From: an uncultured Planctomycetia bacterium
Lineage (GTDB): Bacteria > Omnitrophota > Gorgyraeia > 1-14-0-20-64-10
DNA length: 64,000 nt
Reading direction: 5' to 3'
Assembly (NCBI GenBank): GCA_964597545.1
Contig: CAZQXN010000001.1
Span: 69,655 to 133,654 of the forward strand
The position numbers and the translations under genes were made by a program. Below, in pieces: positions 2,842 through 37,925 of the stretch. A model generated the notes under the pieces. It was not told the DNA's origin. It made no database searches and saw only the letters and a list, made by a program, of their open reading frames with translations. The stretch's first letter is position 1. Each line of letters opens with the position of its first letter.

Positions 2842-3205
2842 GAGAAGCCTCGACCGGCTGATCCAGCGCCACGCAAGCTGCGATCACAGCCAAAACCACG
2901 GTAAACCCTAAGGCAAAGGAACCCACCCCAACCCAGCCCGACCAGAGGAGGGCAATCGCAGCAGGATAGAGCAGGCCGAACTTGGCCGCCAAAAGAAGGA
3001 TGAGCCTTCCCTTGCGCCGGCCATCGCTGCTTAAGAGCCAGCGCATCAGCCGCTCCAGCAGGAAGACATTGACGCTATTCCAAAGGGCGCCGCAGGCAAA
3101 TCCGATGGCTGCTGCCCGACTCCAAAAAAGGCCGATGGGCGCGGCGCAGAGGGTCGCAACTAAGGCAAGGATGAGCCCTTTCTGGATCGATCGTTCAGTC
3201 GGCAT
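2834..3205 (-). CDS. atpI: ATP synthase protein I-like small membrane protein
   Basis: A hydrophobic 4-TM ORF immediately upstream of atpB. I chose the internal ATG at 3205 (MPTERSIQKG...) because it abuts the stop of the upstream gene at 3195-3197, whereas the longer ORF starting at 3274 would overlap that gene. Confidence 0.5.
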   Translation of the reverse strand: MPTERSIQKGLILALVATLCAAPIGLFWSRAAAIGFACGALWNSVNVFLLERLMRWLLSSDGRRKGRLILLLAAKFGLLYPAAIALLWSGWVGVGSFALGFTVVLAVIAACVALDQPVEASHV

Positions 3206-3571: not shown

Positions 3572-4123
3572 ATGGCGGTCCCGAAAATACGACTGGTCAA
3601 ATCCAAGCTGATCTACAAGGGGAGGCTTGCTACCCTCTCCCTGGACACCTGTCGGACTGCCGAGGGCCACCGCTTCTTCAGGGAGACCATCCAACACCCC
3701 CCATCTGCGGTGATTGTCCCCCTTTTACCGGGCAAGAAGGTCCTCCTGATCCGGCAATTCAGGCATGCGGTGGGCAAAACCATCTATGAGATCCCGGCGG
3801 GGACCCGAGAGCCCGGGGAATCCCTCTTGCGCTGTGCCAAAAGGGAGCTGGCCGAGGAGACCGGATACTCGGCTGCCGCCTGGAAGCGGCTGTGCCTCTT
3901 TTATCCGGCCCCCGGAATCTCAATGGAGCGGATGGTCCTCTACCGGGCCTTGGGGCTTAAAGCCATGAAGCGCCCAGCCAAGAAGGACAAGGACGAATAC
4001 ATCGCCACAGAGGCGGTGACAGTGGCGCGCGCAATGCGGCTCATCCGAGACAACCGAATCATCGACGGAAAAACCTTGCTGGGACTCCTCTGGGGACTGG
4101 GAAGGATCCGCTGGACACCCTAA
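3572..4123 (+). CDS. Nudix hydrolase (ADP-ribose pyrophosphatase-like)
   Basis: The Nudix box GTREPGESLLRCAKRELAEETG is present, matching GX5EX7REUXEEXGU. Confidence 0.85.
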   Translation: MAVPKIRLVKSKLIYKGRLATLSLDTCRTAEGHRFFRETIQHPPSAVIVPLLPGKKVLLIRQFRHAVGKTIYEIPAGTREPGESLLRCAKRELAEETGYSAAAWKRLCLFYPAPGISMERMVLYRALGLKAMKRPAKKDKDEYIATEAVTVARAMRLIRDNRIIDGKTLLGLLWGLGRIRWTP

Positions 4124-4124
4124 G

Positions 4125-4508
4125 ATGAATCCAACCACTGAGCTTTTAGAGAAGATCGAGACCCTCTGCAGGAAGGACAAGCGGTACAAGGTCGAGGCTT
4201 ACCTTTTTGTCTTGGGGGGCCTGCACTTTACCGTGACTCAAATGCCCAAGCCTCGTCATGTGACCGGCAAGGAGCTCTTGGAGGGGATCCGCCTCTATGC
4301 GGTCGAGCAGTTCGGCCCCTTGGCGATCCAGGTCTTTGAGCACTGGGGGGTCACCACCACTGAGGATTTTGGCCGCATCGTCTTTAACCTGGTGGATGCC
4401 AAGCTCTTGGGCAAGACCGAGGAGGACTCTTTGAGTGACTTCAAGGAGATCTACGACTTTACCTCGGCCTTTGACCCCAAGCCCCTCTTTAAGCTGGCCG
4501 AGGAGTAA
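4125..4508 (+). CDS. Conserved hypothetical protein, 127 aa
   Basis: A clean ORF that begins 1 nt after the Nudix stop. It contains no motif I can assign. Confidence 0.5.
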   Translation: MNPTTELLEKIETLCRKDKRYKVEAYLFVLGGLHFTVTQMPKPRHVTGKELLEGIRLYAVEQFGPLAIQVFEHWGVTTTEDFGRIVFNLVDAKLLGKTEEDSLSDFKEIYDFTSAFDPKPLFKLAEE

Positions 4509-4533: not shown

Positions 4534-5787
4534 TTATCCCTTTCCCATCCGGACCGCCAGCCACCTGCCCATCTGCCGCAGGCCCTGCGCCGTCAGGATC
4601 AATAAAACCGGCTCGACCGCCCACCGATGCCGAGTCTCAATGTAGGCGAGGCTCTGGATTGCGGCGATCGAAAGCATCAGAAGAATCGGCAACCACTTGC
4701 CGCTGCCTGCCGCAGCATCCCTGAAGAAAGAGCGCGCCCCCAGCAGCGCACCGGCCAGCACCAAAAGATAGAACAGCTTGTATAACAGAAACCAGAGCTT
4801 CGGATACAGCAGTCCCGCCTGCGGCGTGAACCACCAGAAGAAATAAAACTTCTTGGCCGTCCTAGCCAAAAACCCAATGGGGTGCTCAGCCACATACCCT
4901 GTGGCCTCTTTCCAAAAGAGCTTATTCTGTCCCATCTCGTCGAGGCGGAAGATCTGCTCCTTGAGGGCCGGATCAGCCAGATTGAAGATATCTTCGCGCT
5001 CCGAGGATAAAGCAGAACCTGAGAAGTTCTCGTTGTTGCCCAGCCAGAAGACATAAGGTGTATTGGAGCGGGTCAAAACAAACTCCCCTTGCACTTGGTA
5101 ATTCCTGAAAACCCAAGGAGCAAGCACACACCCCAGCACCGCGACAAAGAGCAGGGTGCGGCGAGCAGCGAGCCCAAGACCCATCTTGCGTACGCGGAAG
5201 ATGTAGACAAAGGCCAGAGGCAGGAAGACCAGCGCTGTCGGTCGAGTAAGAGCACATACGCCGCTCACCAGTGCCGCCCCCACCCAATCCCTCAACCGAA
5301 AGTGCTTAAGCACCCGGAGCATCATCAAAAGCACTAAGCTCATCCCAAGAGCATCCAGGGTCAAGGGGTGGAGCTTGGTGGCATAGACAATCAGCCCTGG
5401 ATGCAGGGCGACGAGGGCCGCGGCCAAAAGGGCTGCCTTGGGTGAAACGATCGCCCGAGCACAGTGATAGATCACCACAACCAGCCCCGCCGACAAAAGG
5501 GCCTGGACCACCTGAAGTGCTAACACATTGTGCTTGGTCAAGAAATAGATGAATGCCGCCAGGGCCGGGTAAAGGGGCTCGCAGTAAGAACGATATAGGG
5601 TCCCAAGGTGCGGATAGACAAAGCCATTGCCCTCAAGCAGGTTGGTGGCGATCACCTCATACTCCCAAAACTGAGGGGGGATCACCGCCAGCGCCAAGAG
5701 GCGCACGGCCAAGGCCAGAGCGAAAATAGAGACAATCCAAAGGCCCCAGCGGGATTGCGCAACGGCTTGAGGAGGTGCGGTATCCAT
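4534..5787 (-). CDS. GT39/GT83-family membrane glycosyltransferase (ArnT/PMT-like)
   Basis: The 417-aa polytopic ORF has an N-terminal architecture typical of ArnT/dolichyl-phosphate-mannose mannosyltransferase-like enzymes (...RLLALAVIPPQFWEYEVIATNLLEGNGFVYPH...). Confidence 0.65.
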   Translation of the reverse strand: MDTAPPQAVAQSRWGLWIVSIFALALAVRLLALAVIPPQFWEYEVIATNLLEGNGFVYPHLGTLYRSYCEPLYPALAAFIYFLTKHNVLALQVVQALLSAGLVVVIYHCARAIVSPKAALLAAALVALHPGLIVYATKLHPLTLDALGMSLVLLMMLRVLKHFRLRDWVGAALVSGVCALTRPTALVFLPLAFVYIFRVRKMGLGLAARRTLLFVAVLGCVLAPWVFRNYQVQGEFVLTRSNTPYVFWLGNNENFSGSALSSEREDIFNLADPALKEQIFRLDEMGQNKLFWKEATGYVAEHPIGFLARTAKKFYFFWWFTPQAGLLYPKLWFLLYKLFYLLVLAGALLGARSFFRDAAAGSGKWLPILLMLSIAAIQSLAYIETRHRWAVEPVLLILTAQGLRQMGRWLAVRMGKG

Positions 5788-5925
5788 AGGACCTAAGTAT
5801 CACCACTTCTGTCGGACCCGTCAATACCTATCCATTCTGGATTCCCCCTGCTCCGTACGTTAATATACATAAAGTTGGTTATTTTCCTTGTTTTTTACCC
5901 CCTTTATAGGCCATACTTTCCTTAT

Positions 5926-8900
5926 ATGGTACATCATACGATGACACGCCCATTGGCCTTCCTGCTGGCCCTCCTGATTGGTTTGCCTGCCCCTGCTCTC
6001 CTGGGCAGCCAGGCACTGGCTGCGGAGCATGGTGCGGCTTCCTCTAGCCGCAGCCATCATCTGCGCCCTTCCATTGAAGAGCGGGTGGAGGCTGATCTCG
6101 CCTCCGGCCTGGAGGAGGGGGCTGAGGATCTCGCAACCATTCTTGAGGTGCCGACAATCCAGCAGCTGAGCGCAATCCCCCTCGAAAGAATCGGAGAGGC
6201 CTATCTGCTGGATCCCAGACCGACAACATCCGATTTGAAAGATCAATTTGAGTCTGCCCAGCGGGAGCTCTGGTCGGTTGGATTCAAGCACCGGGAGGCC
6301 CCTCATCTTGTCGTCGGCGTGGGCAGAGAGATTAAAGCGTCGGGGATAACCCATTTCTTGGGCAAGCTGTATTCACGGACAAGACCGACCTCTGTGAGGA
6401 TGCTTCACAAACATCCCGTTCGCTCAGCAATCCCGTCGCACAAGGATTTCAGCGGACTCAAGGAGTGGCGTAAGCGATATGGAAAAAGCGTTCGGCGGCA
6501 GCGCAATTGGATCAACGGCGCAGACAACGGCATCCAGCGCTTTGTGGAGTACGGACACCGGCGCTTGTGGCGCATATTCTCATCCAAGAAGCTACAGGCG
6601 CGGATCTGGAGGGGCGGTCCCAAGAAACCCGCCGAAGCATTCTTCATCCCGGGCACCGATCGATGGCATGTCAGCGACATCAGAAATCACTCTTTGCCGG
6701 GAACCGACCAGGAAGGACACTCCTACTTCTTCAGCCTGGTGGATACGCCGGGCGTTCAGCGGGTTGAATTCAACGACCATCAAGGACGCTGGGCAAGCTG
6801 CAGTGCGAGCGACACCTGGGAAGAGCTACTTGAGTCACAGGGTTACACCAGGCCAGCCTACTCCGGCCTGGAGGAGGAGTGGGTGGAGCGTATCCGTACA
6901 GCAACCCAGCAGTGGCAAGCCAAGGGTTGGAAGCTTTATGACCCTGAGGAGCTCTCCTCAGCTTTTGCCAAGATTGCCGCAAAGCTCGGGTCGGGTTTGG
7001 AGAAAACCCAAGCCTTGGACGCGCAGGATACCAGGCGTTTCATCTGGGAGCGCCGTCAAGAATTCATGGTGGCCTTCTCGCATCTGGCCGAGGCGCTGCA
7101 TCTGCCCCCTGAAAACAATCCGCTAAGCGTCATCGCACTCACCCCTGCACGCGGCAAGTCCCCACCAAAACAAGCTGTGTTGGATCTACCCTATGGTGAA
7201 GGGGTGCTCAGGGCGACGATCCATTTCCAGAACCCTTCCCAAACTCCCAGAACCAAATTCCAGTTTCAGATTCGGGATGCAGCGGGCACCGCCCGGCGTC
7301 TGGGTGAGATGCGCATGGGAGCTGACAAGGAACGGCGCGACACCCTTCCGCTGCTTCACATTGACGTGGTAGATCCGTTGCGCCCAAGAACACCTCACGG
7401 TGAAAAGAGGAAATGGATCTGGCACCTGGGTATCGATTGGGCCTTCACGCAGCAAGATGGCATTCAAGAGAAGCTCATCGCCTACAAGACATTCCAGGAT
7501 AATCTCGGCCAACGGGTGAGACAACTGAGCAGGCGCCCCACAAGGGACACTACCGCTGCTTCCGGCCAAGAAGAGCCAATCCTCTCCCTGCCTGGTGCAG
7601 TACAAGTACCGCTTGCAGATCTTCGCCTGGCTGAAAGAATTGAGGCACACACAGGGGTTGCCGGGATTGATCCTGTCCGGACAGCGCTGAAGCAATTGCC
7701 GAATTCGCTCGTTCTGGCGGTGGTCGGCTCTGCCTTCTTGAGTCCAGGCGAGGCGATTGCCGATCTGGACCTGGCAGTCTATGACACCGCAGAGGATGGC
7801 GCAGGGGTGTGGGAATTACTGGACAGGCTTGAAGATTGCTTGGGCCCATTGGGTGAGGTTACGCGCAGCCCGGCAGCCGGAGATGAGAAGGCGTGGACAG
7901 ACCCCTATACCCTGAGTGTCGAGGATGTGCGAGGCGGAGGAGAGAGTTTCCAGGTGGATATCTTTGCCCTTCCCATGAGTTTATTGCGCACCAACCCGAT
8001 TGTGGATGGCCTAGACGCCTTATTCTACGTCGGGGGATTCAATCCCCTCTTCCCGGTCTATGGGGTTCAAAGCAGTCAAGCGGCAGAGCAATTCGTTGAG
8101 ATTGCTGCAGCAATTCCAGAGACCACCCTGGTTGGCAATCTCACACAATGGAAGCAAGCGCTCCTGGAGGATGCGCAGATGCGTTTGAGGTTCGGCGAGT
8201 CCGAAGCAGAGGCCATCCAAAAAGTGCGCCGACGAGCCCGTACCGTTTTGTATGCCCTAGACAGCAATGAGGTCCCGGCACCAGATGCACTTCCAGGGAA
8301 CCAAAAAGAGCTTGGCGAATTGCTAAGAACCCTGCAGACCCGGCAGGGTGATTTCGTAGAGCGGGTGCGGGCAATCCGTCTCGCCTCCGGCCTGGAGGAG
8401 GGAATAGAGTTGGCTACTGTGCCGATCCCGCGAAGCGCCGATGAGACCGACGCGTACGTTAACCGGCTCCATAGAACACGAGTGGTTATCGGAGATGCCC
8501 TCCGCATTCCCTATGACCCTTCCTTTCCGGAAACGGTGGCAGAACGGCACCACCTTTCGGTGATCCGCCATCTGAACGACAATGCCTTCCTCCATTTCCT
8601 TGACAGGACCTCGATCGCCAATCCTCAGGCGCAATTTACCTTCTTCCTCACCCAAGGGGTGGTTGACGGCGCTCTGCGCTGGTTTCTGAATGTTCAATAC
8701 CAAGATAACAATCCAGAGGCGTGGGAACATCCCATCGAGAGCGCGGTGACGAAGTTAAGCGGTGGAAGCCAAAGGGATGGCGGCGGAGTGGGATTGTGGA
8801 CTGCTTACCAAGCAGTAGCGCAAATTCCTGATGCGGCCCTTATCGTTGAGGCTCGGGATGTAGACGGCCATCGGAAACGGCTGAAGTTTGTAAAGGCCTT

Positions 8901-11900
8901 AAGCAGCCCTGCTTCCTTGGAGATTCGTAATCCTGATGGGGGAACAGAAATCTTGGTCCGGCTTCCAATCCTCCCCTTGGAGATAAACCTTGGGGAGGCA
9001 GCAGAACAAACTCGAGAACTGTTGGCCGGCAGATTTGGGCAGGGGCTCTCCAGGGAAATGACCGAATCTACCATCACCCAAATCTTGCGGCACAGCCTTC
9101 TGCTGCGCGCTGTGCAGATAGGCTCAGGGGCTAGAGCGGTCCTGATTCAAGGAGAAGCTGCGCAAGAGGTGACCGGACAAGCGGTGGCAAGGGCTCTCGA
9201 CGCACTTCCAGGGTCTTCTGATGGCAATCGGTTTGTTATGCACATTGGCAGGCACCCTTCAGAAGGTCTGGCTGTATACATTGCTCCGCTGCGAGGTGAA
9301 TATCATGCCCTCAGTTCAGGAGAGGCTGTTGAGATCGCGGATCTGCTTCGACAGAGAGAGCCGACGGTAGCTTCCATTCGCTTTCCTGGGCAAGGGTCTC
9401 ATCTGGATGTTCCGCTCGGAGCGCTCAGCCGAGAGTTGATTGCGGCGAGTGTCGATCGGATTCTCCAGGGCGGCAATGGCGTCATCCAGGTGGTGCCCTT
9501 TGAGCTTGGCGAAACAGATAGGCTCGCCATTGAAGTCTTATCAACCTCCGGCCAGGAGGAGAAGCGCCCCGCCCTAGGGCAGCTTACCAAACAGCTGCGT
9601 CAAATTCACAGACCCGGTTCCACGTGGACCCCTTCACAGATTGTTGATGCAGTCCGAGCCGCCTCTGAGACAGAGGATTTTGAGCTAGAGTGGCTTGCTC
9701 CCGGACAGATCAACTCCCCTGCGCAAAGAAAGACCGCCTGGGGGAAGATCCTTCACGCCGCTTACAGTGCGGTCAACAGGGGAGGGCTGGATCCGCTCAC
9801 CTGGCGGAAGGTTCTGGAGCAAGCAGGGCTTGATCCGAATCAGGTCTATGGGCGCAAACGAAGATCGCGAAAAGGGGATGGGATAGCATCCCCGGTTGCC
9901 GTCCACCTCCATCCTCCTTTCAAGGATGGCAAGCCGAACCTGGAGGCGTTAGGGGAACCAAACCACACAGGTGTGCGACTGCCCCGCCGTCCTTGGTGGA
10001 AGGAACACGCTCCTGCTCGCGCTCTGTTCATGAACCTTGAAACAGCTGGGAGTTCAACTGGGCAAGCGATCGTTAATGCTTACGGCCCCTCCTACTCACT
10101 CCCGCTGCCCTACAACGAATCCAACCCGGACCGCGTGGTGGTGTTGGCAGATGTCCCTGAGCCGGATCAGATCCGCGTACTGGCCATCTACCACGCTCAA
10201 ACCTTAAAGCAACTCTACCCCACCGCCAATCAGATATGGATCTATCCTCGCTTCCACCTGCAAGGAGGAAAGCTCCGAGGAGATTCTTTCTTCTTAAGGG
10301 CTACAGAGAAGATCAAAGATACCTCCTGGGACAATCTGGCCGCACGGGGCCCGCAAGTCGCCCTGGCGCATAGCCGCATTGGCGTCGACTCTGGCAGTTC
10401 ATACGTCCACTGCAGGGGTATCCCGCGCCTCATTCCGTACCGTAAAGGGGTAACGCATTCAAATCCTATGCTGGTCATTGCTGATACGCGCGCAGAGGCT
10501 GAAGCACCACCCATTGCCATCTATAACAACCAGGGGGATCAAGTTGCTCCTCACTGGGAAGATGCGTCGGTTCTGGAATTTGATGCGGTCGAGCTGGCAT
10601 CGCAGCTGCTGCGCCAACTGGCAGGCGCCTCCAATCTACTGCAAGGATCCGGCAGCGAACGAACTGTGCAACATCTCGACGTCAGCCAGCTGCTCGGCGG
10701 AACACCGGCTGCCATTGCCTTCCGTGATGACAGCGAGGACGGCTTAAGGCGGCGCCTGGAAGTGGCGCTGGCGGTAGCACTTGACCCCTGGAAACCTGCT
10801 CTTTATGATCCGGCTCGTGGGCAATATCTGCCGGCCTGGGAGGCGGGCGAACCCTTAAGGGAAGCGGGAATTGCCTCTATTCAAATTACGGTTCCACCTC
10901 GACCGGAACAGCCGGAAACCGCCTGGTTGGTTGTTCCGAGCAACGGTACGGCGGGGCTGCCGGCTTACGAGGCTGATGCGTTTAGAGGGTTTCATCCGAA
11001 TCAAGCGCAAAAGCTTCCCGCCGACACAACCCACGTCATCACGCGGCCCCTCACCAGGGAAGCCCTCTCCAGAGAGGTTGTGATTCCGTTGCACTACAAC
11101 GAGCGCGCAACCAGCGTTGTGGCGCTGCTTTCCCGGGAAGCTGGGGTCAGTACGGGAGAACGCATTCCAGCAGGAAAGAATACTCGGCTCTTCTTTGAGC
11201 CGACACTTCAATTGGATCACTGGGTAGGCGAAGAGGATAACGGCAGGCCGGCTCTGGTGTTGTGGTCGCATCCCTGGCCTGGTGATACCGTTCCAGACAG
11301 CTTCACCATACCCACCATTGATCTACATCCCGATCAAACCTTTTCACTTACCCTAAGACAGCTGTTTCATGCAGCACTGCTCGGCCACACAGCAGCAGCG
11401 CACCTGAATGTCTCAGCCCTCTGGACCTTCTTAGACAGCGAAAATCAGCCGCTGTTGGCCGCTGCTATCGGCCCGGAGCGCACTGCCGGCCAGGAGGAGG
11501 CTGATACCCTCGCAGGGGTCAGCACCCGCAGTGTGGTGTCGACTTACTTTGATCCGCCATTTTACGAGCACGGAACGCTCAAGGAAGTCACAGCAGATTC
11601 AGTTTGGGAATTCACAAATTTGCCGCCTGCCTTCTGGGAAACCGCCCGAGAGAGAGCCCAGAAGCATGTTGTACTCCGCGGCGTGCGCTCGATCGACACC
11701 AATGGGCAAGCGCACTTTGCAGCCACAACAGCACAAAGGAAAACCGGCCGCTATCCCACCGCAGTGCCTTACGGCGCAGATGTTGCATTTACGGTGGCGT
11801 TTAACATGCAGCATCCCCTTCTGGGGATTCCCGAGAAAGCTTTTCACAACGGAATCCAAGTGTACCCGGCAGCAAACCATGTCGAGATGTATCTGCATTT

Positions 11901-14900
11901 CGAGGTACGCCATGGCAAGCTGGTGCCTGAAGCCTCCTTCCTGTTTAAAGCAACTGAGCGATCGATTAAGGGGGTTTGGGATCTCCCTGAAGTTTTGGAG
12001 GCAAGCTCAGTGGCGTTGGCAAACGTTTCAACACTTACGAGGCCAATCCGAAACAAGCCCAATGTATCGTTTCGGTACCGCACAAAGCGTTTCACCATTT
12101 CGGTGCCGAATGGGGAATCCGCTCCACAGCGTGTTCTGATCCTCGGCAATCCCAAGAGACCGGATGGAGATCCCCCGGAAATCGTCCACGATATGAAAAC
12201 AGGCCGAGAGGTTTGGCCCACCTGGGGGGCAGTCCCCGCGCAAACCCTGGCCGACGCCTTAGAGCGATACCACGATGAGGAGGTGGCCAGTCAGTTTCGG
12301 CGCCCTTACGACCCCCGCTACTTCAACGAGTTGCTCCAGCAGGCGCAGCGAAGTTTTCCGCAGCCTACTGAGGGGGAACGTATTGTGTTCGATCTGCTAC
12401 AAGCGGCCGCCCGAGCTGCTCGGGCGGCTCAAGGGAACAATCCTCAGCACATCGAGGACTTTTTCAGCACCAGCGCCGACCGAATCCAACAAAGGGAGCC
12501 AATCAGAGTCAACGGCGGCCTGGAGGAGACTGGAAAATTTGATTTGATACGGGCAGAGGAACCGATTCCGCCCTTCCGGCTGCCGGAGTTGCCTGATGGG
12601 TTCCGGGTAAGCGAAGGGACCTTTCCTCTGGATCCCTCAACAGCCATGTTCAGCACCTTGATTCGAGAGCACCCGGAGCTGTTTCAAGGCATGGTCCTGG
12701 ACCTTGGAACCGGAAGCGGAGCTTTGGCCATTCAACTGGCCCGCCAGGGCGCCACTGTGGTGGGTATAGACAAATTAAGAGGAGCCATCGACGATGCGCG
12801 CCACAACCTCTCCCTAGAATCACCAGAGGTGCAGGCCCGGGTCACCTTCGGAGTCAGCGATCTATACGAGAATCTTCCTCAGATCACCGGGGAAGACAGT
12901 CCTCAATTCGACGTGGTGATTTACAACAACGGTATTCGCTTAGAGAAGGTCGCCCAAATCATCCCTCGAGATGCGATGTTGAAGGCCGGGGAGGCAGGGG
13001 AAGAGGTGGCCCGGGCCGTCAGCGGGTTGGACCAGGTGCTCACTCCAAATGGCAGAAGCTTTTTCCTGGGGGGTTCGGATCGCAATCTCGTCAACCTTTT
13101 CGGGTGGGGCCATTTTGAGGAGGCAAAACCAGAGGGGTGGAGGGTGCACCCCACAACATACAAGAAAAGCATGGCGCGCATCGTAAGGCAGGTGTTGATC
13201 TTCCGGGTGGCACCCCCGGGCGTTCCGGAATCTGCCGAGGTGGTGGCCGAGCCGAGCCTTCTCAATGTCCTCTTCCTTCCGGAGCGAAGGTTTGAAGTCC
13301 CGGCCGGCCAGGAGGAGAGACGGGAGATTGAGCTGGATACGATACCGCTTCAAGAAGCCGGCTCGAGAGAGACTGATGCGCATACACCCCTCTTCGACCC
13401 CCTGAATAGACCGTTCCAAGACCCTTTAAGTCCCTTTCATCCAATCCGCATTGACATGGGACCGATCCTCACGAATCTAGCAGACAACGCCAGAGAGCAT
13501 TTCCTGGAGCGCTTCCCGGATGTTGCGAACAAGACGGCTCAACTCAAACTTTCTGTTGCTGAACGAGATGCTGGGGATCGGTCCCTCATCATCCGCTACC
13601 AGGACAACAATCCGCATCCCTGGGAAATTCCGATTGACGAGGCGGTCCGAGGCTGGGGTGAGAGCAGAAAAGAACTTTCATGGGGAATAGGAGAGGGCTT
13701 GACAGGATCTTATAGAAGGACAATGAAGCTGGGTGGTCGCTTCACCGTGGAGGGGATGGACCCGAACGAAGGGCGCACCCGTCTGATCTACGCCGAGCCT
13801 GACCAAGAGCCTGCACCGGAAGATCGTCGCTACCAGAGCGATGGGACAGAGATCGTAGCTGAGCTTCCGATTCAAGCTCCAGATCAGTCCCTTGAAGCGC
13901 TTGCCGAATCCTTCCGTCAGAGCCTGGCCTCCGGCCAGGAGGGGCGTTCTGACGAATGGCGCCTCAGGGATAAAAAGGTTTCTGGGGGTCCGGCGATTCG
14001 GTGGCGGCCTCTCACCAATACGCCTGAGATGGTAAGTCGGTCGGAGCTAGAGCACGCCCAGCGGCGCGCTTACGACGAACATATTTTTGACCACCTCCCA
14101 AAGGATCTGGTACCCGCCCTTTCTGGTGGCATCTCTGGATTGCTGGCTCAGTTTGAGCAAGAAAACCGAGCAAGCGGCAAACCCTTCGCTTGGTGGGATG
14201 GGGCAGGCGGCATCGGCACGGCACTCCATCAGGCACGCGGCAGCGGCCATTATCCACACTTGGTACCTGTCCTTGTCGATCTTGTCAACTGGAAAGAAGA
14301 AGAGCTACCCCAGAAAGCAAGAGGGTGGCTCCGTCAGATGGCGCCGATTTGGGGGGTGGATTACCAAGATTTCTGGTCTAAGAAAGGTGTTGGGTTTATT
14401 TCGGGGGATCTTTCGACGCTTTATATTCCGCCAGAAGAAGCATCTTCCATCCGCCTTTTTACAATCATCGGATCGCTGGGTTTCTTTGATAATCCTTTGG
14501 GTGCCCTGCTAAACGTCTATAATCAACTCCCGGATGACGCCATCCTCCTAGCACCCTTATTCATCTCGATGGAAGACCCTCGGCGCCCTGAGCCAGAGGA
14601 GGCCGTCGTTGACTTCTATCGGGACGTGGTGGTTCCTGATCTTAAAGCGCATGGTGTTCAAGTCGATTTCAAGAAGACCAATCAGATGGAAGAGGCGGCC
14701 GTTGCTCAGGGACTCGGCGCGGGCATTCCGCAATTCCAGGCCGGATTCGTGTTCGTTAAGACGCCTGGATCAATCAAGCTGCTCCTTACGCCTAAAGTAC
14801 GCACCTTCCCGCAGAAGACAACCCGTGACGTTCTAGCGAAGGTCGTTCATTATGAGGGGGATCTTGAGAACCCCTTCGCTTACCATCCTCCTACCTCCGG

Positions 14901-15360
14901 CCTGGAGGAGGCGGTTGTGTGGGAATCAACGGTGTTTCGGGGGCAATTCCCGCAACTGGCAGACCAGATTCCAGCAAACGCCACTCATCTTTTGGGGGTG
15001 CCCCTCGACGGTGCGGTCACGCTGTATCGGCCTGAGACCTTGGCCGGAGGGCTGGAGGAACGAATTCGAGTAGAAGCAGAGCATTTCCCTGGTGTCGTCA
15101 TCCGGGCACAGCCGATTCCGCCGGCCGAGCGCAGCGTTCAGCGCCCTGCAGTTTTTGTGCTGGATACCCTCTTGGAGCTTAAGCTCCCCTACGAGCCCAC
15201 TCCTGCTGTGCACCACCAACTGGGCCAAGCGCTCCCGCCGCTGTTGAGGCTTATTGCCATGGCTTTAGCAGGTCGGACCGATGTCGTTGCTGCCTGGGTT
15301 GTCGGCCAGGTGGTTGAGGAAGATGGCCGGCAATACTTTGTCCTGGCGGTTCAACTGTAA
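5926..15360 (+). CDS. Giant protein of about 3,145 aa with a predicted signal peptide; NTase-like motif, two GHKL-like ATPase-like segments, two SAM-MTase-like segments and an internally duplicated module; function unknown
   Basis: One stop-free frame runs from 5875 to 15360 (9.5 kb). The first in-frame ATGs are 5926 (MVHHTMTRPLAFLLALLIGLPAPALLGSQALAAE) and 5941; the ORF-track start at 5875 is a TTG. The N-terminus looks like a signal peptide. The motifs I read are: VVGSAFLSPGEAIADLDLAVYD (hG[GS]x9-13DhD, about 7710-7790); LNDNAFLHF...YQDNNPEAWE...GGVGLW (about 8560-8900) and LADNAREHF...YQDNNPHPWE...GGRFTVE (about 13470-13800), which are GHKL N-box/G-box-like; VLDLGTGSGALAI...DVVIYN (about 12690-13000) and WWDGAGGIGTAL...VDLVNW (about 14190-14300), which are MTase motif I/II-like; and the duplication FFLRATEKIKDTSWDNL versus FLFKATERSIKGVWDLP (about 10290 and 11940). 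Confidence 0.85.
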   Translation: MVHHTMTRPLAFLLALLIGLPAPALLGSQALAAEHGAASSSRSHHLRPSIEERVEADLASGLEEGAEDLATILEVPTIQQLSAIPLERIGEAYLLDPRPTTSDLKDQFESAQRELWSVGFKHREAPHLVVGVGREIKASGITHFLGKLYSRTRPTSVRMLHKHPVRSAIPSHKDFSGLKEWRKRYGKSVRRQRNWINGADNGIQRFVEYGHRRLWRIFSSKKLQARIWRGGPKKPAEAFFIPGTDRWHVSDIRNHSLPGTDQEGHSYFFSLVDTPGVQRVEFNDHQGRWASCSASDTWEELLESQGYTRPAYSGLEEEWVERIRTATQQWQAKGWKLYDPEELSSAFAKIAAKLGSGLEKTQALDAQDTRRFIWERRQEFMVAFSHLAEALHLPPENNPLSVIALTPARGKSPPKQAVLDLPYGEGVLRATIHFQNPSQTPRTKFQFQIRDAAGTARRLGEMRMGADKERRDTLPLLHIDVVDPLRPRTPHGEKRKWIWHLGIDWAFTQQDGIQEKLIAYKTFQDNLGQRVRQLSRRPTRDTTAASGQEEPILSLPGAVQVPLADLRLAERIEAHTGVAGIDPVRTALKQLPNSLVLAVVGSAFLSPGEAIADLDLAVYDTAEDGAGVWELLDRLEDCLGPLGEVTRSPAAGDEKAWTDPYTLSVEDVRGGGESFQVDIFALPMSLLRTNPIVDGLDALFYVGGFNPLFPVYGVQSSQAAEQFVEIAAAIPETTLVGNLTQWKQALLEDAQMRLRFGESEAEAIQKVRRRARTVLYALDSNEVPAPDALPGNQKELGELLRTLQTRQGDFVERVRAIRLASGLEEGIELATVPIPRSADETDAYVNRLHRTRVVIGDALRIPYDPSFPETVAERHHLSVIRHLNDNAFLHFLDRTSIANPQAQFTFFLTQGVVDGALRWFLNVQYQDNNPEAWEHPIESAVTKLSGGSQRDGGGVGLWTAYQAVAQIPDAALIVEARDVDGHRKRLKFVKALSSPASLEIRNPDGGTEILVRLPILPLEINLGEAAEQTRELLAGRFGQGLSREMTESTITQILRHSLLLRAVQIGSGARAVLIQGEAAQEVTGQAVARALDALPGSSDGNRFVMHIGRHPSEGLAVYIAPLRGEYHALSSGEAVEIADLLRQREPTVASIRFPGQGSHLDVPLGALSRELIAASVDRILQGGNGVIQVVPFELGETDRLAIEVLSTSGQEEKRPALGQLTKQLRQIHRPGSTWTPSQIVDAVRAASETEDFELEWLAPGQINSPAQRKTAWGKILHAAYSAVNRGGLDPLTWRKVLEQAGLDPNQVYGRKRRSRKGDGIASPVAVHLHPPFKDGKPNLEALGEPNHTGVRLPRRPWWKEHAPARALFMNLETAGSSTGQAIVNAYGPSYSLPLPYNESNPDRVVVLADVPEPDQIRVLAIYHAQTLKQLYPTANQIWIYPRFHLQGGKLRGDSFFLRATEKIKDTSWDNLAARGPQVALAHSRIGVDSGSSYVHCRGIPRLIPYRKGVTHSNPMLVIADTRAEAEAPPIAIYNNQGDQVAPHWEDASVLEFDAVELASQLLRQLAGASNLLQGSGSERTVQHLDVSQLLGGTPAAIAFRDDSEDGLRRRLEVALAVALDPWKPALYDPARGQYLPAWEAGEPLREAGIASIQITVPPRPEQPETAWLVVPSNGTAGLPAYEADAFRGFHPNQAQKLPADTTHVITRPLTREALSREVVIPLHYNERATSVVALLSREAGVSTGERIPAGKNTRLFFEPTLQLDHWVGEEDNGRPALVLWSHPWPGDTVPDSFTIPTIDLHPDQTFSLTLRQLFHAALLGHTAAAHLNVSALWTFLDSENQPLLAAAIGPERTAGQEEADTLAGVSTRSVVSTYFDPPFYEHGTLKEVTADSVWEFTNLPPAFWETARERAQKHVVLRGVRSIDTNGQAHFAATTAQRKTGRYPTAVPYGADVAFTVAFNMQHPLLGIPEKAFHNGIQVYPAANHVEMYLHFEVRHGKLVPEASFLFKATERSIKGVWDLPEVLEASSVALANVSTLTRPIRNKPNVSFRYRTKRFTISVPNGESAPQRVLILGNPKRPDGDPPEIVHDMKTGREVWPTWGAVPAQTLADALERYHDEEVASQFRRPYDPRYFNELLQQAQRSFPQPTEGERIVFDLLQAAARAARAAQGNNPQHIEDFFSTSADRIQQREPIRVNGGLEETGKFDLIRAEEPIPPFRLPELPDGFRVSEGTFPLDPSTAMFSTLIREHPELFQGMVLDLGTGSGALAIQLARQGATVVGIDKLRGAIDDARHNLSLESPEVQARVTFGVSDLYENLPQITGEDSPQFDVVIYNNGIRLEKVAQIIPRDAMLKAGEAGEEVARAVSGLDQVLTPNGRSFFLGGSDRNLVNLFGWGHFEEAKPEGWRVHPTTYKKSMARIVRQVLIFRVAPPGVPESAEVVAEPSLLNVLFLPERRFEVPAGQEERREIELDTIPLQEAGSRETDAHTPLFDPLNRPFQDPLSPFHPIRIDMGPILTNLADNAREHFLERFPDVANKTAQLKLSVAERDAGDRSLIIRYQDNNPHPWEIPIDEAVRGWGESRKELSWGIGEGLTGSYRRTMKLGGRFTVEGMDPNEGRTRLIYAEPDQEPAPEDRRYQSDGTEIVAELPIQAPDQSLEALAESFRQSLASGQEGRSDEWRLRDKKVSGGPAIRWRPLTNTPEMVSRSELEHAQRRAYDEHIFDHLPKDLVPALSGGISGLLAQFEQENRASGKPFAWWDGAGGIGTALHQARGSGHYPHLVPVLVDLVNWKEEELPQKARGWLRQMAPIWGVDYQDFWSKKGVGFISGDLSTLYIPPEEASSIRLFTIIGSLGFFDNPLGALLNVYNQLPDDAILLAPLFISMEDPRRPEPEEAVVDFYRDVVVPDLKAHGVQVDFKKTNQMEEAAVAQGLGAGIPQFQAGFVFVKTPGSIKLLLTPKVRTFPQKTTRDVLAKVVHYEGDLENPFAYHPPTSGLEEAVVWESTVFRGQFPQLADQIPANATHLLGVPLDGAVTLYRPETLAGGLEERIRVEAEHFPGVVIRAQPIPPAERSVQRPAVFVLDTLLELKLPYEPTPAVHHQLGQALPPLLRLIAMALAGRTDVVAAWVVGQVVEEDGRQYFVLAVQL

Positions 15361-15407: not shown

Positions 15408-16445
15408 TTGTTCTCAGAAATGAGCTCATCTAACCCAAAAGGGGTCAGACCCCCTGAAGGGGGTCAGACCCCTGCGTCCCACCGCTGTGGATCGGTCGTG
15501 ATCCTGGGCCGCCCCAATGTGGGTAAGTCCACCCTTTTGAACCGCCTCCTGGGCGAGAAGATCGCGATTGTCTCGCATAAGCCGGAGACCACCCGGGAGC
15601 AACTCTTAGGCATCCTGACCCTGGCCGATGCTCAAATCCTTTTCTATGACACCCCTGGGATTTATCGAGCCCCCTCCACCCTCTTGGGCAAGCACCAGGT
15701 GCAGGCAGCTCGGGATGCCCTGGAGGCCGCGGATGTCATGCTGCTCATGACCGAAGCGCAGGCCGGGTTGACCGATGAGGATAAGCAGATTGTGGGGCTG
15801 CTGAAAACCAGAACAACGGTACCGGGTACAGCAAGTGTACCCGGTACCGAAACCGAGGGGTTGCCGGTGTTGCTGGCAATCAACAAGGCTGACCGGGTCA
15901 AGAAGTCGCTCATTCTGCCGCAGATCGAGGAAGCAAATCATCTTTATCCATTCCGGGAAATTGTGCCGATATCCGCCAGGGACGGAGACAACACCGAGCC
16001 CCTCTTAAAGGCGCTGGTCCAAGCATTGCCTGTTGGACCAGCCCTGTATCCTGCGGATGAGCTGACCGATAAGCCCGCACGTACTCTGGTCCAGGAGCTC
16101 ATCCGCGAGAAGACCTTGCTCTTTACCCACGAAGAGGTGCCTTATGCGGTGGCGGTCCTCGTTGAGGAATGGCGAGAGGGAGAAAAGCCAAAAGGGGTCA
16201 GACCCCTTAAGAAGAAGGGGTCAGACCCCGTCTACATTCGGGCAACGATCTATGTGGAGCGGGATTCGCAGAAGGGGATCTTGATCGGCAAGGGGGGAGG
16301 ACTCCTAAAGAAGATCGGGGAGGCAGCCCGCAAAGAGATTGAGGCGCTGTTGAAAGGGCCAATCTTTCTTGATCTTTGGATCAAGGTTGCCAAGAACTGG
16401 CGCAAGGACCCCCAGATGCTAAGGAGGCTGGGATATGGTGCATGA
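15408..16445 (+). CDS. era: GTPase Era, carrying three in-frame palindromic-repeat insertions
   Basis: The G1 motif ([16 protein letters not shown]), DTPG, NKAD and a C-terminal KH domain (VAVLVEEW...[37 protein letters not shown]...LDLWIKV) are all present. Relative to E. coli Era there are extra segments at the N-terminus, before the G4 motif and in the KH domain, and these coincide with the repeat elements. Confidence 0.85.
15441..15472 (+). repeat. Tandem pair of GGGGTCAGACCCC palindromes inside the era 5' coding region
   Basis: ccaaaaGGGGTCAGACCCCctgaaGGGGGTCAGACCCC, which encodes [14 protein letters not shown] in frame. Confidence 0.7.
15818..15848 (+). repeat. Dispersed palindromic element, copy B (GGTACCGGGTACA gcaag TGTACCCGGTACC), inserted in frame in era
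   Basis: A perfect 13-bp inverted repeat with a 5-nt loop. It encodes [12 protein letters not shown] in the loop between the G3 and G4 motifs of Era (E. coli has ...LREGKAPVILAVNK... here). Confidence 0.75.
16198..16239 (+). repeat. Second tandem pair of GGGGTCAGACCCC palindromes, inside the era KH domain
   Basis: ccaaaaGGGGTCAGACCCCttaagaagaaGGGGTCAGACCCC, which encodes [14 protein letters not shown] in frame. The 19-nt lead-in ccaaaaggggtcagacccc is identical to the one at 15435-15453. Confidence 0.75.
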
Positions 16446-20564: not shown

Positions 20565-20590
20565 AGTCGGTACCCAAAGGAGAGCGTTGA

Positions 20591-30321: not shown

Positions 30322-30732
30322 ATGTTTCGTCATCGATTTGGGCAGCGCTACAAGTACCAGAATACGCGCCAGTATTTGAGGCTGCCGATCTCATGGCCGG
30401 TCAAGTGCGAACCCAAGCAAGCCGAGGAGGGTCGGCACGTCACCGCCACGCAGGATGTCAGCGCCGGGGGTATGCGCATGATTGTCCGGGAGGAGGTTCC
30501 GGTCGATTCCGAGGTCGTCCTGGAGATTCATGTGCCGCCGCTGGAGCGCTCCATCCAAGCCGTGGGCCGTGTGCTGCGCTGCCAACCGAGCCGCAGGGGT
30601 TTTGAGCTGGGGGTGCGCTTTGAGAAGATCGACCCGAGAGATCAGGTAGCGCTCAATGAAGCGGTGGAGCAATTTTACAGTCCCCGCAAACGGGTTCGCC
30701 ACCAACAGTCGTGGTGGCGAAAGATCACTTAA
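30322..30732 (+). CDS. PilZ domain protein (putative c-di-GMP receptor)
   Basis: RQYLRLPISWPVKC...TQDVSAGGMRM, i.e. the PilZ signatures. Confidence 0.55.
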   Translation: MFRHRFGQRYKYQNTRQYLRLPISWPVKCEPKQAEEGRHVTATQDVSAGGMRMIVREEVPVDSEVVLEIHVPPLERSIQAVGRVLRCQPSRRGFELGVRFEKIDPRDQVALNEAVEQFYSPRKRVRHQQSWWRKIT

Positions 30733-30752
30733 GGGGGTGTGTTAAGTCCGGG

Positions 30753-32258: not shown

Positions 32259-32259
32259 C

Positions 32260-35993: not shown

Positions 35994-35995
35994 AG

Positions 35996-37909: not shown

Positions 37910-37925
37910 GGGGACCGTGTAACCC

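Follow-up and report, generated by a model that had tools for sequence, protein, structure and literature searches.

A single long gene beside era

What lies beside era in the genome of this uncultured bacterium? The window (the whole 64-kb stretch of DNA analyzed here) contains, on the + strand, a single frame free of stop codons from 5875 to 15360. Its neighbors are the atp operon, a NUDIX gene, a PMT_2 glycosyltransferase gene, and era; an earlier note on this DNA had described housekeeping surroundings (the atp operon and era). The gene is genuine, 9.4 kb long, and encodes a product of 3,139 aa; its likely start is the ATG at 5941 (MTRPLAF, as in the database protein P0001, also 3,139 aa) or the ATG at 5926. 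After a putative signal peptide and a leader of ~25 aa, the protein is made up of about ten cassettes: one JAMM-like, one nucleotidyltransferase (NTase)-like, two GHKL-like, one SAM-dependent methyltransferase (MTase), and five others. Its features are as follows:

5788..5925, no strand: AT-rich intergenic region, divergent, flanked by the PMT_2 glycosyltransferase gene (- strand) and the gene for the polyprotein
5941..6024, + strand: putative Sec-type signal peptide, aa 1-28, MTRPLAFLLALLIGLPAPALLGSQALAA, from sequence features
6025..6105, + strand: short leader or propeptide, aa 29-55, ...HHLRPSIEERVEADLAS, with the first junction at its end
6106..6864, + strand: cassette 1, aa 56-308, JAMM/MPN+ metalloprotease-like
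6865..7563, + strand: cassette 2, aa 309-541, recurring in P0007, P0008, and P0016
7564..8388, + strand: cassette 3, aa 542-816, pol-beta nucleotidyltransferase-like, by motif
8389..9549, + strand: cassette 4, aa 817-1203, GHKL-like module 1 with a C-terminal extension, paralog of cassette 8
9550..11487, + strand: cassette 5, aa 1204-1849, not in the L001 ortholog, including a domain related to cassette 6
11488..12516, + strand: cassette 6, aa 1850-2192, 72% identical to P0002 aa 754-1102
12517..13305, + strand: cassette 7, aa 2193-2455, class-I SAM-dependent methyltransferase, by Pfam and PDB matches
13306..13932, + strand: cassette 8, aa 2456-2664, GHKL-like module 2, with homologs in P0010, P0011, P0013, and P0014
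13933..14898, + strand: cassette 9, aa 2665-2986, the "second MTase" of the earlier note
14899..15360, + strand: C-terminal module, aa 2987-3139, and stop codon; kept in P0002, P0007, P0016, and L003, and weakly in P0003

The intergenic region is as AT-rich as had been reported (GC 0.41 vs. 0.575 for the window; rank 6 of 6,387 among the lowest-GC 138-nt windows) and is probably a promoter region, with one weak sigma-70-like match, on the - strand.

Shared cassettes have dN/dS ratios of 0.19-0.59, as compared with 0.05-0.09 in neighboring genes, a 3-8 times higher value that still reflects purifying selection. Together with the lack of stops and the matching database entry, these ratios bear out the one giant frame of the earlier note. 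Could an assembly chimera or a decaying pseudogene nevertheless mimic a long open reading frame? The source is an assembly from an uncultured organism, and many cassettes are without any known homolog. However, intact orthologs sit at the same locus in independent JGI, ENA, and NCBI assemblies, every shared cassette has a dN/dS well below 1, catalytic motifs are kept, and the GC content of the gene is the same as that of its flanks, all of which makes an artefact vanishingly unlikely.

How common are proteins of this kind? Relatives are as scarce as had been anticipated: 15 were found among 1.84 billion representative proteins, and no viral relatives were found. The nearest named genome is a Candidatus Omnitrophota metagenome-assembled genome, to which a neighboring gene shows 78% identity; other relatives are labeled Planctomycetia. 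The order of the locus across relatives is NUDIX, a conserved protein of ~130 aa, the polyprotein, (RHH-Fic), era, and patatin. At this syntenic position the polyproteins measure 944, 1,170, 1,759, 2,088, and 3,139 aa, and they carry differing sets of modules behind the same Sec-type leader.

A pentapeptide at the cassette borders

What separates one cassette from the next? The pentapeptide [A/S/T]-G-[L/Q/M/A]-E-E occurs at 10-12 sites in the protein, where 0.2 would be expected; the narrower G[LQ]EE is found 10 times (~0.2 expected) and only twice in the rest of the window. The junction cores are as follows:

6103..6117, + strand: junction 1 (S-G-L-E-E), the first junction core
6862-6876, 7561-7575, 8386-8400, and 9547-9561, + strand: junction cores 2-5
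11485-11499, 12514-12528, 13303-13317, 13930-13944, and 14896-14910, + strand: junction cores 6-10

GLEK at aa 352, inside cassette 2, is probably not a true junction. Across the 15 relatives there are 74 pentapeptide sites, as compared with 3.8 +/- 1.9 in shuffles, and among all fetched loci only family members have at least two motifs per protein. The sites always lie between domains, all Pfam domain matches falling inside cassettes, whose median length is 248 aa. The junction logo has five informative positions and uninformative flanks, and the AF2 model shows disorder at the junction residues (pLDDT <50, residues 1-4).

At the nucleotide level, seven junction cores have the exact 14-mer CCGGCC[AT]GGAGGAG in common, a 15-mer is present in eight copies, and one pair is identical over 24 nt; CCTCCGGCCWGGAGG is an inverted repeat with an SD-like GGAGG inside. 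The junction codons vary much less than would be expected from codon usage (P=8e-13), and junction-centered 45-mers fold more tightly than background (mean -13.9 vs. -9.8 kcal/mol; Mann-Whitney p=0.003). These properties would suit a repeat that matters first of all at the nucleic-acid level, the peptide being its by-product: it could serve in recombination, form an RNA hairpin or stall ribosomes where domains meet, or provide an internal start of translation. We regard this as very unlikely, because the peptide is kept where the nucleotides are not: homogeneity is strong in the window and in L001 and weak in L006, and L008 has no excess identity at all, the observed value being reached in 1338/3000 resamples. 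L006 has GAA GAA and other Gly codons, L003 and L004 have GGG ATG, and an in-frame start codon does not consistently follow GGAGG. Furthermore, no copy of the exact 14-mer lies outside the junctions on either strand of the window (the shorter 11-nt core has one further copy, at 31143). Since the homogeneity is lineage-specific, any role of the core in recombination would not be general.

Mosaicism between orthologs

Where do orthologs at the same locus differ? Their gains and losses of cassettes map exactly to junctions. Protein BLAST blocks with relatives begin and stop at these points, and within the family 50% of HSP ends fall no more than 15 aa from a junction, vs. 16% for random placement. 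When the window is aligned with L001 by blastn, the blocks end within a few nucleotides of the junction cores, with flanks that are 91% identical and cassettes that are 74-81% identical; a neighboring membrane protein shows 97% identity between these two genomes. As the junctions of this lineage share one nucleotide core and one frame, recombination between them could add, delete, or swap cassettes in frame.

Other cassettes in the 15-protein family include sigma-70, PP2C, GNAT, alpha/beta hydrolase, and 2-hydroxyacid dehydrogenase modules and further MTases. The earlier note had overlooked the pentapeptide, the JAMM module, and the mosaicism between orthologs.

What the cassettes encode

Cassette 7 is the first of two MTases that had been proposed, and the Pfam libraries agree (P0001 aa 2230-2372, E=9e-10). 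Matches above cut-offs are Methyltransf_31 (38.9 bits, cut-off 27), Methyltransf_25 (36.3), MTS (29.1), and PrmA (25.1), and also Methyltransf_12; motif I (VLDLGTGSG) is present, PDB entries 8gdu and 6mro match, and dN/dS is 0.19. The HemK/RsmC-type motif IV, (D/N)PP(Y/F), is absent, the sequence reading IYNNGI here, IYNNPL in P0002, and IFDNPIF in P0011. The second MTase, assigned to cassette 9, is unsupported: this cassette has no match in Pfam, NCBIfam, or PDB, no homolog was found, and it bears no similarity to cassette 7.

The two segments likened to GHKL ATPases (cassettes 4 and 8) are real paralogs, with 32% identity over 222 aa (E=3e-20), and cassette 4 is 68% identical to P0002. In the family alignment, the N-box Asn61, His65, and a G2-like G129-x-G131-L132 are invariant; at the G1 position, Y-x-D-x-N-P lacks the glycines of DxGxG. 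HATPase_c matches cassette 8 at E=0.003 (18.4 bits, below the cut-off of 26.4; profile positions 8-109 of 111), does not match cassette 4 in Pfam, and is found in two of seven family members (best E=1.1e-4); a profile search against PDB gives histidine kinases at E ~0.5. Paralogy and the N- and G2-boxes stand; the ATPase profile stays sub-threshold and the G1-box departs from the GHKL pattern. The NTase claim for cassette 3 is in a similar position: the motif G-S-x10-D-x-D is present and G55-S56...D67-x-D69 is invariant with P0015 and P0017 (the third Asp occurs in 2/3 sequences), but neither Pfam nor PDB profiles match. Taken together, one of the five enzyme segments in the earlier note is unsupported and two are weakly supported.

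Cassette 2 aligns with P0007, P0008, and P0016 at 28-31% identity (E=1e-12 to 1e-20); neither it nor cassette 5 has a Pfam match. Cassette 6 has a dN/dS of 0.29. An internal duplication, thought to span ~550 aa, does exist but is far smaller, with 42 aa at 40% (E=2e-6) and 44 aa (E=1e-3) found directly and ~250 aa at 25% when traced via an ortholog. The AF2 model of the C-terminal module (pLDDT 54) is unusable.

Cassette 1 looks like a JAMM-type protease. It fits E-x(n)-H-x-H-x(7-10)-S-x-x-D (the JAMM motif being E...HxH...PSxxD), with E54, H101, H103, S111, and D114 invariant in five homologs of 25-42% identity, and the predicted model (pLDDT 88) has the MPN (JAB) fold, the closest structures being RadC, JAMM1, BRCC36, and Cap3. 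Pfam JAB and Prok-JAB do not match the cassette of the window; Prok-JAB matches only the homolog P0009 (E=0.009, 16.4 bits, cut-off 25), and the profile search against PDB returns JAMM1 at a nonsignificant E=0.56. Known JAMM substrates are ubiquitin-like tails, and no beta-grasp or ubiquitin-like domain was identified upstream of the junctions. The module may be mere cargo, as it occurs in only 5/15 family members and the closest ortholog, L001, is without one.

Predicted export and cleavage

In which compartment would these enzymes work? The N-terminus has a basic n-region, a hydrophobic stretch of ~19 residues with Pro/Gly, and a c-region with A-L-A; the basic n-region and the AxA c-region (...PAYA, with LRP/Q after the predicted cut) are kept in all full-length relatives. 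Judged by these sequence features, the signal-peptide-like start recognized in the earlier note is most plausibly a Sec signal peptide, and it is the one hydrophobic segment in 3,139 aa. The leader behind it (aa 29-55) is common to P0002, and a similar LR(P/Q)xIE...GLEE leader is found in P0003 and P0007. No translocation or pore-forming module was recognized in the protein, and no secretion system lies within the 64-kb window.

The same segment could instead be an uncleaved N-terminal anchor, with the enzymes acting in the cytoplasm of the producer itself and the junctions perhaps still processed. The recognizable cassettes are all enzymes of a cytoplasmic type, among them the complete sigma-70 of P0015; such a location has been suggested in a preprint for multi-enzyme Omnitrophota giants, and the 2026 preprint (bioRxiv 10.64898/2026.06.07.730766) takes Pfam module 1 (MTase + HATPase_c + GNAT) as cytoplasm-compatible. 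We nonetheless consider an anchor unlikely, because the N-flank of the segment is consistently basic (up to +5) and the segment ends with a classical small-x-small site after Pro, as is characteristic of cleaved signal peptides of N-in orientation, by which the C-terminal part is exported. Cys is also very scarce (3 in 3,139 aa), and the fast evolution and cassette turnover are more like those of interaction proteins than of housekeeping enzymes.

The reading we prefer, to which we give about an even chance, is that an Omnitrophota-like (PVC) bacterium exports, by Sec, a multi-effector polyprotein whose cleavage and delivery we infer. It looks like a rare, fast-evolving bacterial polyprotein that exchanges modules at the motif, where they are probably also cleaved from one another. 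Each junction would be a proteolytic site, cut after the invariant Gly, and cutting would free individual enzymes with the neo-N-termini L/Q/M/A-E-E. Because its relatives cut after a C-terminal Gly, the JAMM cassette is a candidate for the processing enzyme, perhaps acting in cis and, on members without a JAMM, in trans. The cassettes need ATP, SAM, acetyl-CoA, or RNA polymerase and so probably act in another cell (host or prey); on this view the protein would be a string of effectors, comparable to the MARTX toxins.

It is possible, though doubtful, that the product stays whole as a multidomain envelope protein (e.g., a periplasmic or surface scaffold) in which the pentapeptide is a linker: a hinge, a handle for chaperones or the export machinery, or a modification site. 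No protease domain is common to the whole family, the conserved N-terminal leader and C-terminal module fit the ends of one functional polypeptide, and Omnitrophota giant proteins are generally discussed as cell-surface proteins. However, plain linkers do not keep five residues across <30% identity while their flanks vary, and cassettes dependent on ATP, SAM, acetyl-CoA, or RNA polymerase have no obvious periplasmic role. Tandem junctions 9-10 aa apart, as in P0008 and P0015, would be odd for a structural hinge, and the free-standing NTase cassette ORF at L009 begins M-E-E, as expected of a neo-N-terminus left by a cut after Gly, which supports the cut-site reading.

Comparison with known systems

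How does this putative cleaved polyprotein relate to systems already described? Viral polyproteins (a review is PMC13067793) likewise combine several enzymes and their own protease in one translation product with a short border consensus. Unlike them, the gene here is chromosomal and lies in a conserved housekeeping neighborhood, and its product is predicted to be Sec-exported.

JAMM/MPN+ peptidases (Rpn11, AMSH, archaeal JAMM1, CBASS Cap3, Bil BilC, and RadC-like JAB) have a specificity that fits the invariant Gly at the proposed P1. Cassette 1 shares their E...HxH...S..D metal-site motif and, in its predicted model, their fold; it differs in its length of ~250 aa, with ~120 aa past the MPN core, and in being embedded in what appears to be an exported polyprotein.

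In polymorphic toxins (CdiA-CT, Rhs, and MafB), a short conserved peptide such as VENN and conserved DNA mark the border between constant and variable parts, and this border peptide is thought to guide the recombinational swapping of cytoplasm-acting domains on a Sec-exported protein. Those toxins carry one variable C-terminal toxin and an immunity gene, whereas here there are about ten cassettes, the C-terminal module is conserved, and no small immunity-like gene lies downstream, era being next. None of the cassettes is a recognizable toxin; they are regulators and modifiers, and no RHS or haemagglutinin repeats were found in the protein with Pfam.

The MARTX (multifunctional autoprocessing repeats-in-toxin) toxins of Vibrio and relatives (a review is PMC3153235) are exported polypeptides with an array of unrelated, cytoplasm-acting enzyme modules whose repertoire varies between strains by recombination. 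An internal protease frees the modules at short inter-domain sites. An exchangeable module array is seen here as well, and release by an internal protease would be a further likeness. MARTX toxins have a C-terminal T1SS signal, in contrast to the putative N-terminal Sec signal of this protein, in which Pfam and NCBIfam searches (E up to 1-10) found no RTX or glycine-rich repeats and no InsP6-activated cysteine protease domain. Further differences are the defined pentapeptide junction, the JAMM metalloprotease candidate, and a target that is not necessarily eukaryotic.

The earlier note knew of no described family with such a combination of domains. This has to be qualified: long Omnitrophota proteins are reportedly tiled with domains such as MTase, HATPase_c, GNAT, and NUDIX (bioRxiv 10.1101/2023.11.21.568195 and 10.64898/2026.06.07.730766), and cleavage of such multi-enzyme proteins has already been proposed. 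The searched texts of these two preprints describe neither a junction motif nor a cut site. Those giants ("Archaeovorin-type" or class 1) resemble the protein in their same or neighboring lineage, tiling of unrelated enzyme domains, N-terminal signal, rapid divergence, few annotated domains, and proposed proteolytic processing. They are 10 to 50 times larger (>10,000-147,000 aa) and usually contain many transmembrane helices along with SecA-like domains and peptidases of the C39 or S8 type; Pfam searches found none of these domains here. The present protein is 3,139 aa long, with a single hydrophobic segment and with a JAMM module. A bolder and rather unlikely proposal is that the pentapeptide is a cut-and-shuffle code used generally by Omnitrophota-type multi-enzyme proteins. 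A JAMM protease within an exported polyprotein would cleave after Gly and release a changeable mix of regulators (a sigma factor, phosphatases, ATPases of kinase-like type, and methyl- and acetyltransferases) to reprogram host or prey, and the 10,000-147,000-aa giants would be cut at sites marked in this way too. If this is true, the protein would be the first JAMM-processed bacterial effector polyprotein.

The Gene and Its Neighborhood

The putative polyprotein gene is, as the earlier note had read it, a single frame without stops at 5875-15360 on the forward strand. Its first ATGs lie at 5926 and 5941, and the NCBI protein (P0001, 3,139 aa, from a contig of 208,633 bp; amino acid numbers refer to it throughout) is identical to the product read from 5941. 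The gene's GC content (0.572) matches that of the window (0.575); the upstream flank described as AT-rich does have a GC content of 0.41 over 138 nt (5788-5925), among the lowest in the 64 kb. The housekeeping neighbors named at the outset, atp and era, were both located in the window:

atp genes (delta, b, a), - strand, neighbors of the putative polyprotein gene
3572-4123, NUDIX gene
4125-4508, + strand, gene for a 127-aa protein without a Pfam match
4534-5787, - strand, PMT_2 glycosyltransferase gene
5875-15360, + strand, putative polyprotein gene
about 15420-16445, era, downstream of the putative polyprotein gene
18504-20564, + strand, gene for a 686-aa protein combining cyclic-nucleotide-binding, AAA_31/ParA-like, and patatin phospholipase domains

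The N terminus resembles a signal peptide, as previously proposed: aa 2-27, with a basic n-region and an A-L-A c-region, are the sole hydrophobic segment of P0001, which contains only three cysteines. An origin in a phage or mobile island was rejected—the locus is syntenic and housekeeping, its GC is like that of its flanks, and there are no viral matches—and a scan of viral contigs found no relatives. A defense-system origin was likewise set aside, as PADLOC returned only a generic methyltransferase match.

The remainder of the window holds beta-oxidation genes and, filling its second half (30660-63877), one large exopolysaccharide or capsule cluster. The latter includes a Wza-like exporter, a TPR protein, a carbamoyltransferase, an FkbM methyltransferase, GDP-mannose dehydratase/epimerase genes, at least 10 GT4 or GT2 glycosyltransferases, and an adjacent paralogous pair of the Wzz/GNVR/AAA_31 tyrosine-kinase type (35963-37906 and 37923-39869). 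A 771-aa stop-free frame at 47995-50307 (+) has two separate GDP-mannose 4,6-dehydratase/epimerase matches and may be a fusion, a read-through tandem pair, or an over-extended frame.

A Pentapeptide Recurs between Modules

What separates the modules of so large a protein? The peptide G-[L/Q]-E-E occurs at aa 56, 309, 542, 817, 1204, 1850, 2193, 2456, 2987, and 3037 of P0001, with near-variants at 352 (GLEK) and 2665 (GQEG); 0.2 occurrences are expected from composition, and all remaining ORFs of the window combined have two. The sites at 352 and 3037 (GLEE) were rejected as true junctions, since they lie inside modules that homologs keep motif-free and lack the nucleotide core described below. 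Because these two fall inside conserved modules, ten true junctions were counted, which together with a leader delimit ten cassettes of 209-646 aa (cassettes 1-9 and a C-terminal module).

Across the family of related proteins, the motif occurs 74 times, compared with 3.8 +/- 1.9 in shuffled sequences, at a median spacing of 248 aa. Logo information is confined to positions -1 to +3 (-1, A44/S15/T8/G5; 0, G75; +1, L44/Q14/A10/M6; +2, E75; +3, E68/Q7), and among all fetched loci the ORFs with two or more motifs are exclusively family members. Some relatives carry tandem motifs 9-17 residues apart, or "empty cassettes" (P0008, aa 42/52; P0015, 37/47 and 445/454; P0011, 34/51), which may record the loss of cassettes or offer several sites for cutting. 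Full-text literature searches for the pentapeptides and literature searches for JAMM-processed bacterial polyproteins returned nothing relevant.

Enzyme-Like Cassettes

Which of the enzymes recognized by eye in the earlier note are recovered by profile searches? The class-I SAM methyltransferase of cassette 7 (aa 2230-2372) scores above cut-offs, is the sole Pfam/NCBIfam domain with the whole of P0001 as query, and is backed by a PDB sequence search (8gdu, 6mro). Pfam was also searched module by module at E up to 10. The two segments likened to GHKL ATPases (cassettes 4 and 8) are indeed paralogs (32% identity over 222 aa, E=3e-20). Of the two, only the second matches HATPase_c, below threshold, at E=0.003 and 18.4 bits over positions 8-109 of the 111 in the profile. 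When seven family copies are aligned, the N-box Asn/His and the G-x-G-L G2-box are invariant and the G1 box is without its glycines; two of the seven match HATPase_c (best E=1.1e-4), with no competing families. The profile of this alignment retrieved nothing significant from PDB sequences, and its comparison with the bona fide HATPase_c of the relative P0016 (hhalign, hmmsearch) was not significant.

For the putative nucleotidyltransferase (NTase) of cassette 3, the motif G-S-x10-D-x-D is present and invariant in two homologs, and Pfam and PDB give it no profile support; a profile of its alignment found nothing significant among PDB sequences. The proposed second methyltransferase (cassette 9, aa 2665-2986) gains zero support from Pfam searches, PDB searches, and comparison with the real methyltransferase. 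The internal duplication is real and smaller than the 550 aa claimed. Directly, it spans 42 aa at 40% identity (E=2e-6) plus 44 aa; traced through the ortholog, it covers about 250 aa at 25%.

No module is shared more widely than cassette 1 (aa 56-308), which is 25-42% identical to its counterparts in P0003, P0006, P0009, and P0012. The residues invariant in its alignment—E54, H101, H103, P104, P110, S111, and D114—make up the JAMM/MPN+ signature E...HxH...S..D, and one homolog weakly matches Prok-JAB exactly over this stretch. An AlphaFold2 model built from the five-sequence alignment is confident (pLDDT 87.9, pTM 0.87), with junction residues 1-4 disordered. Foldseek against the PDB ranks RadC (JAB) first (probability 0.96-0.97), followed by CSN5, BRCC36, and Prp8-Jab1; these fold-match scores are moderate, and the MPN core leaves about 120 of the 253 residues uncovered. 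A sequence-profile search of the PDB with the cassette 1 alignment returned nothing significant. On the strength of signature and model, cassette 1 is predicted to be a JAMM-like protease.

A Small, Mosaic Family

How widespread are such proteins? A word-indexed search of 5.8 billion proteins recovered only P0001 itself, P0002/P0005 (1,759 aa), and P0003 (2,088 aa), and an exhaustive HMMER search of 1.84 billion representatives with aa 56-1203 yielded 15 proteins altogether. No relatives were found in genome contigs scanned with the whole protein or in metagenome contigs scanned with the C-terminal module and with the JAMM module. The C-terminal module's AF2 model (pLDDT 54) was too poor for a fold search. 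Common to all full-length relatives are a signal peptide ending P-x-A-[Y/H]-A | L-R-[P/Q], a short leader, and the repeated [A/S/T]-G-[L/Q/M/A]-E-[E/Q].

BLAST blocks between P0001 and its relatives have both ends at junctions. Four blocks match P0002 (aa 804-1207, 1849-2197, 2181-2459, and 2986-3139), and aa 56-312 match P0003. Family-wide, half of the block ends lie within 15 aa of a junction, compared with 16% under random placement. By Pfam, the cassettes of relatives comprise enzymes and regulators that are unrelated to one another: two PP2C domains, an alpha/beta hydrolase, and GNAT in P0014; sigma-70 regions 2, 3, and 4 in P0015; a 2-hydroxyacid dehydrogenase in P0012; HATPase_c in P0016 (E=7.5e-12); and methyltransferases in P0002 and P0011. 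Each match falls within one cassette. Near the P0014 gene, a radical-SAM gene (18667-20760 of its locus, L006) has faint intein-splicing and LAGLIDADG matches and may encode an intein-containing radical-SAM enzyme.

Genes at the locus are arranged as NUDIX, a conserved ~130-aa protein, the putative polyprotein, an RHH-Fic pair in some, era, cNMP-patatin, and 3HCDH. This order is the same around P0005 (locus L001, which carries the closest ortholog), P0003 (an ENA contig), P0016 (L010/L011; 1,170 aa), and P0007 (L012; 944 aa); P0012, P0014, and P0015 lie at other loci. A scan of species-representative genomes with the neighboring 518-aa membrane protein as query recovered one Candidatus Omnitrophota MAG (78% identity) and three MAGs labeled Planctomycetia; in two of these MAGs, the end of a junction-bearing protein (A-G-M-E-E) lies just upstream of era. 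The 127-aa protein, directly upstream of the putative polyprotein in L010 and L012, is roughly 70% identical across these lineages (judged by inspecting the alignment), compared with 57% for NUDIX and 66% for era; in the window, the PMT_2 gene is inserted between it and the putative polyprotein. The 686-aa protein stands beside era in all syntenic relatives. The RHH-antitoxin-like and Fic genes lie between the putative polyprotein and era in the more distant relatives (L010, 8588-9192; the P0003 contig) and are absent from the window and L001.

Between the window and L001, the flanking 9.9 kb are 91% identical and shared cassettes 74-81%; at the protein level, the membrane protein is 97% identical and cassettes 70-79%. 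Each of the eight internal block ends is no more than a few nucleotides from a junction core. Whole cassettes are gained and lost: compared with L001, the window gene differs in four N-terminal cassettes, carries cassettes 5, 8, and 9 in addition, and is missing one cassette present in L001. The dN/dS ratio is 0.19-0.42 in cassettes and 0.59 in the leader, compared with 0.05-0.09 in era, the membrane protein, patatin, and 3HCDH, where dS is similar. The gene is therefore under purifying selection, and hence functional, yet it evolves much faster than its surroundings.

Junctions at the DNA Level

The exact 14-mer CCGGCC[A/T]GGAGGAG is common to seven junctions and is found nowhere else in the window on either strand. 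Under the gene's codon usage (TCC 0.22, GGC 0.35, CTG 0.33, CAG 0.49, GAG 0.64), the chance of at least seven matches is 8e-13. A repeat search returned the 15-mer CCTCCGGCCWGGAGG in eight copies, in which CCTCC and GGAGG form an inverted repeat by inspection, along with two identical 24-nt stretches (6096-6119 and 8379-8402). All cores are in one reading frame, so exchange between any two preserves the frame. Nucleotide uniformity is strong in the window (reached by 0 of 3000 resamples) and L001 (1 of 3000), weak in L006 (65 of 3000), and absent in L008 (1338 of 3000); L003 and L004 junctions read GGG ATG GAG GAG. Because uniformity varies by lineage, the feature conserved family-wide is the peptide, and the uniform DNA is best explained as a lineage-specific overlay from recombination or conversion among junctions. 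RNA centered on junctions folds somewhat more stably than background (p=0.003), an effect that we attribute to the palindrome. Translation starting internally behind the SD-like GGAGG was rejected, because a consistent following start codon is absent.

Two further sites in the window deserve mention. An ORF at 30660-32255 (+), which immediately precedes a Wza-type gene for polysaccharide export (32107-33408), has the window's only other junction-like site, ESGLEEK at about 31143 (codons GGCCTGGAGGA). Its product begins with a signal peptide (MKRLLRAGLVLGMILAGSQFSPAEA) and includes a low-complexity acidic region; it has no Pfam match, and its C-terminal part is likely a beta-barrel. The palindromic 13-mer GGGGTCAGACCCC occurs in two tandem copies ~6 nt apart at about 15441-15473 (+), just past the probable era start (ATG 15420); the 5' end of era cannot be aligned with L001, the blastn match beginning at 15477.

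A Possible Mode of Action

The giant multidomain gene flagged earlier is thus real, and its main interest comes from the junctions, cassette mosaicism, and JAMM-like module, which had been missed. The simplest reading of a five-residue sequence kept across otherwise unrelated proteins is that a common factor recognizes it. JAMM peptidases cleave their substrates immediately behind a C-terminal Gly, and Gly, preceded by A/S/T/G, is the junction's only invariant small residue; we therefore propose cleavage after Gly, which would give products starting L/Q/M/A-E-E. Anecdotal support comes from locus L009 (3440-3560), where P0017 (243 aa), a homolog of the NTase cassette 3, stands alone as an ORF whose product begins M-E-E; the upstream ORF, of at least 1,165 aa and without internal junction motifs, stops 16 codons before it in the same frame. 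That the JAMM module itself is the junction protease seems to us possible but rather doubtful: only 5 of the 15 family members have it, and the closest ortholog is without it, a weak point of the mechanism. A second weak point is that searches of the surroundings turned up neither a translocation module nor a secretion system.

Where would released cassettes work? They need ATP, SAM, acetyl-CoA, NAD, or RNA polymerase, which are lacking in the periplasm, and their products would therefore make sense inside another cell, where we propose that they act. This would fit the rapid turnover of the gene and the proposal that Omnitrophota depend on hosts or live as predators (PMC10066038). Whether P0001 is an exported string of cassettes, putatively cut and delivered as effectors, we judge to be an even call.

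Comparison with Known Systems

Omnitrophota and other host-dependent bacteria make long multi-enzyme proteins, and whether these act whole or cut is, to our knowledge, an open puzzle. If the junction is a cut site, such proteins could be parsed into mature products, a new JAMM specificity could be tested, and a bacterial effector repertoire would be seen to evolve by in-frame cassette exchange within a single gene at a fixed locus. The closest functional analogue is the MARTX toxin, although all of its defining parts are absent here. The closest biological relatives are the long Omnitrophota proteins, which likewise combine methyltransferase, HATPase_c, GNAT, and other domains. C39 or S8 peptidases have been suggested to process them, without cut sites being given (bioRxiv 10.1101/2023.11.21.568195, 10.64898/2026.06.07.730766), and neither a junction motif nor a cut site came up when the text of both preprints was searched; missing cleavage-point information is said there to block structural analysis of giant gene products (bioRxiv 10.1101/2023.11.21.568195). 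Unlike them, the family described here is 10-50 times smaller, with a single hydrophobic segment, a JAMM module, and an explicit junction motif. It is small and tractable, offering a testable border signal, a candidate protease, and orthologs that differ by whole cassettes as natural "experiments."
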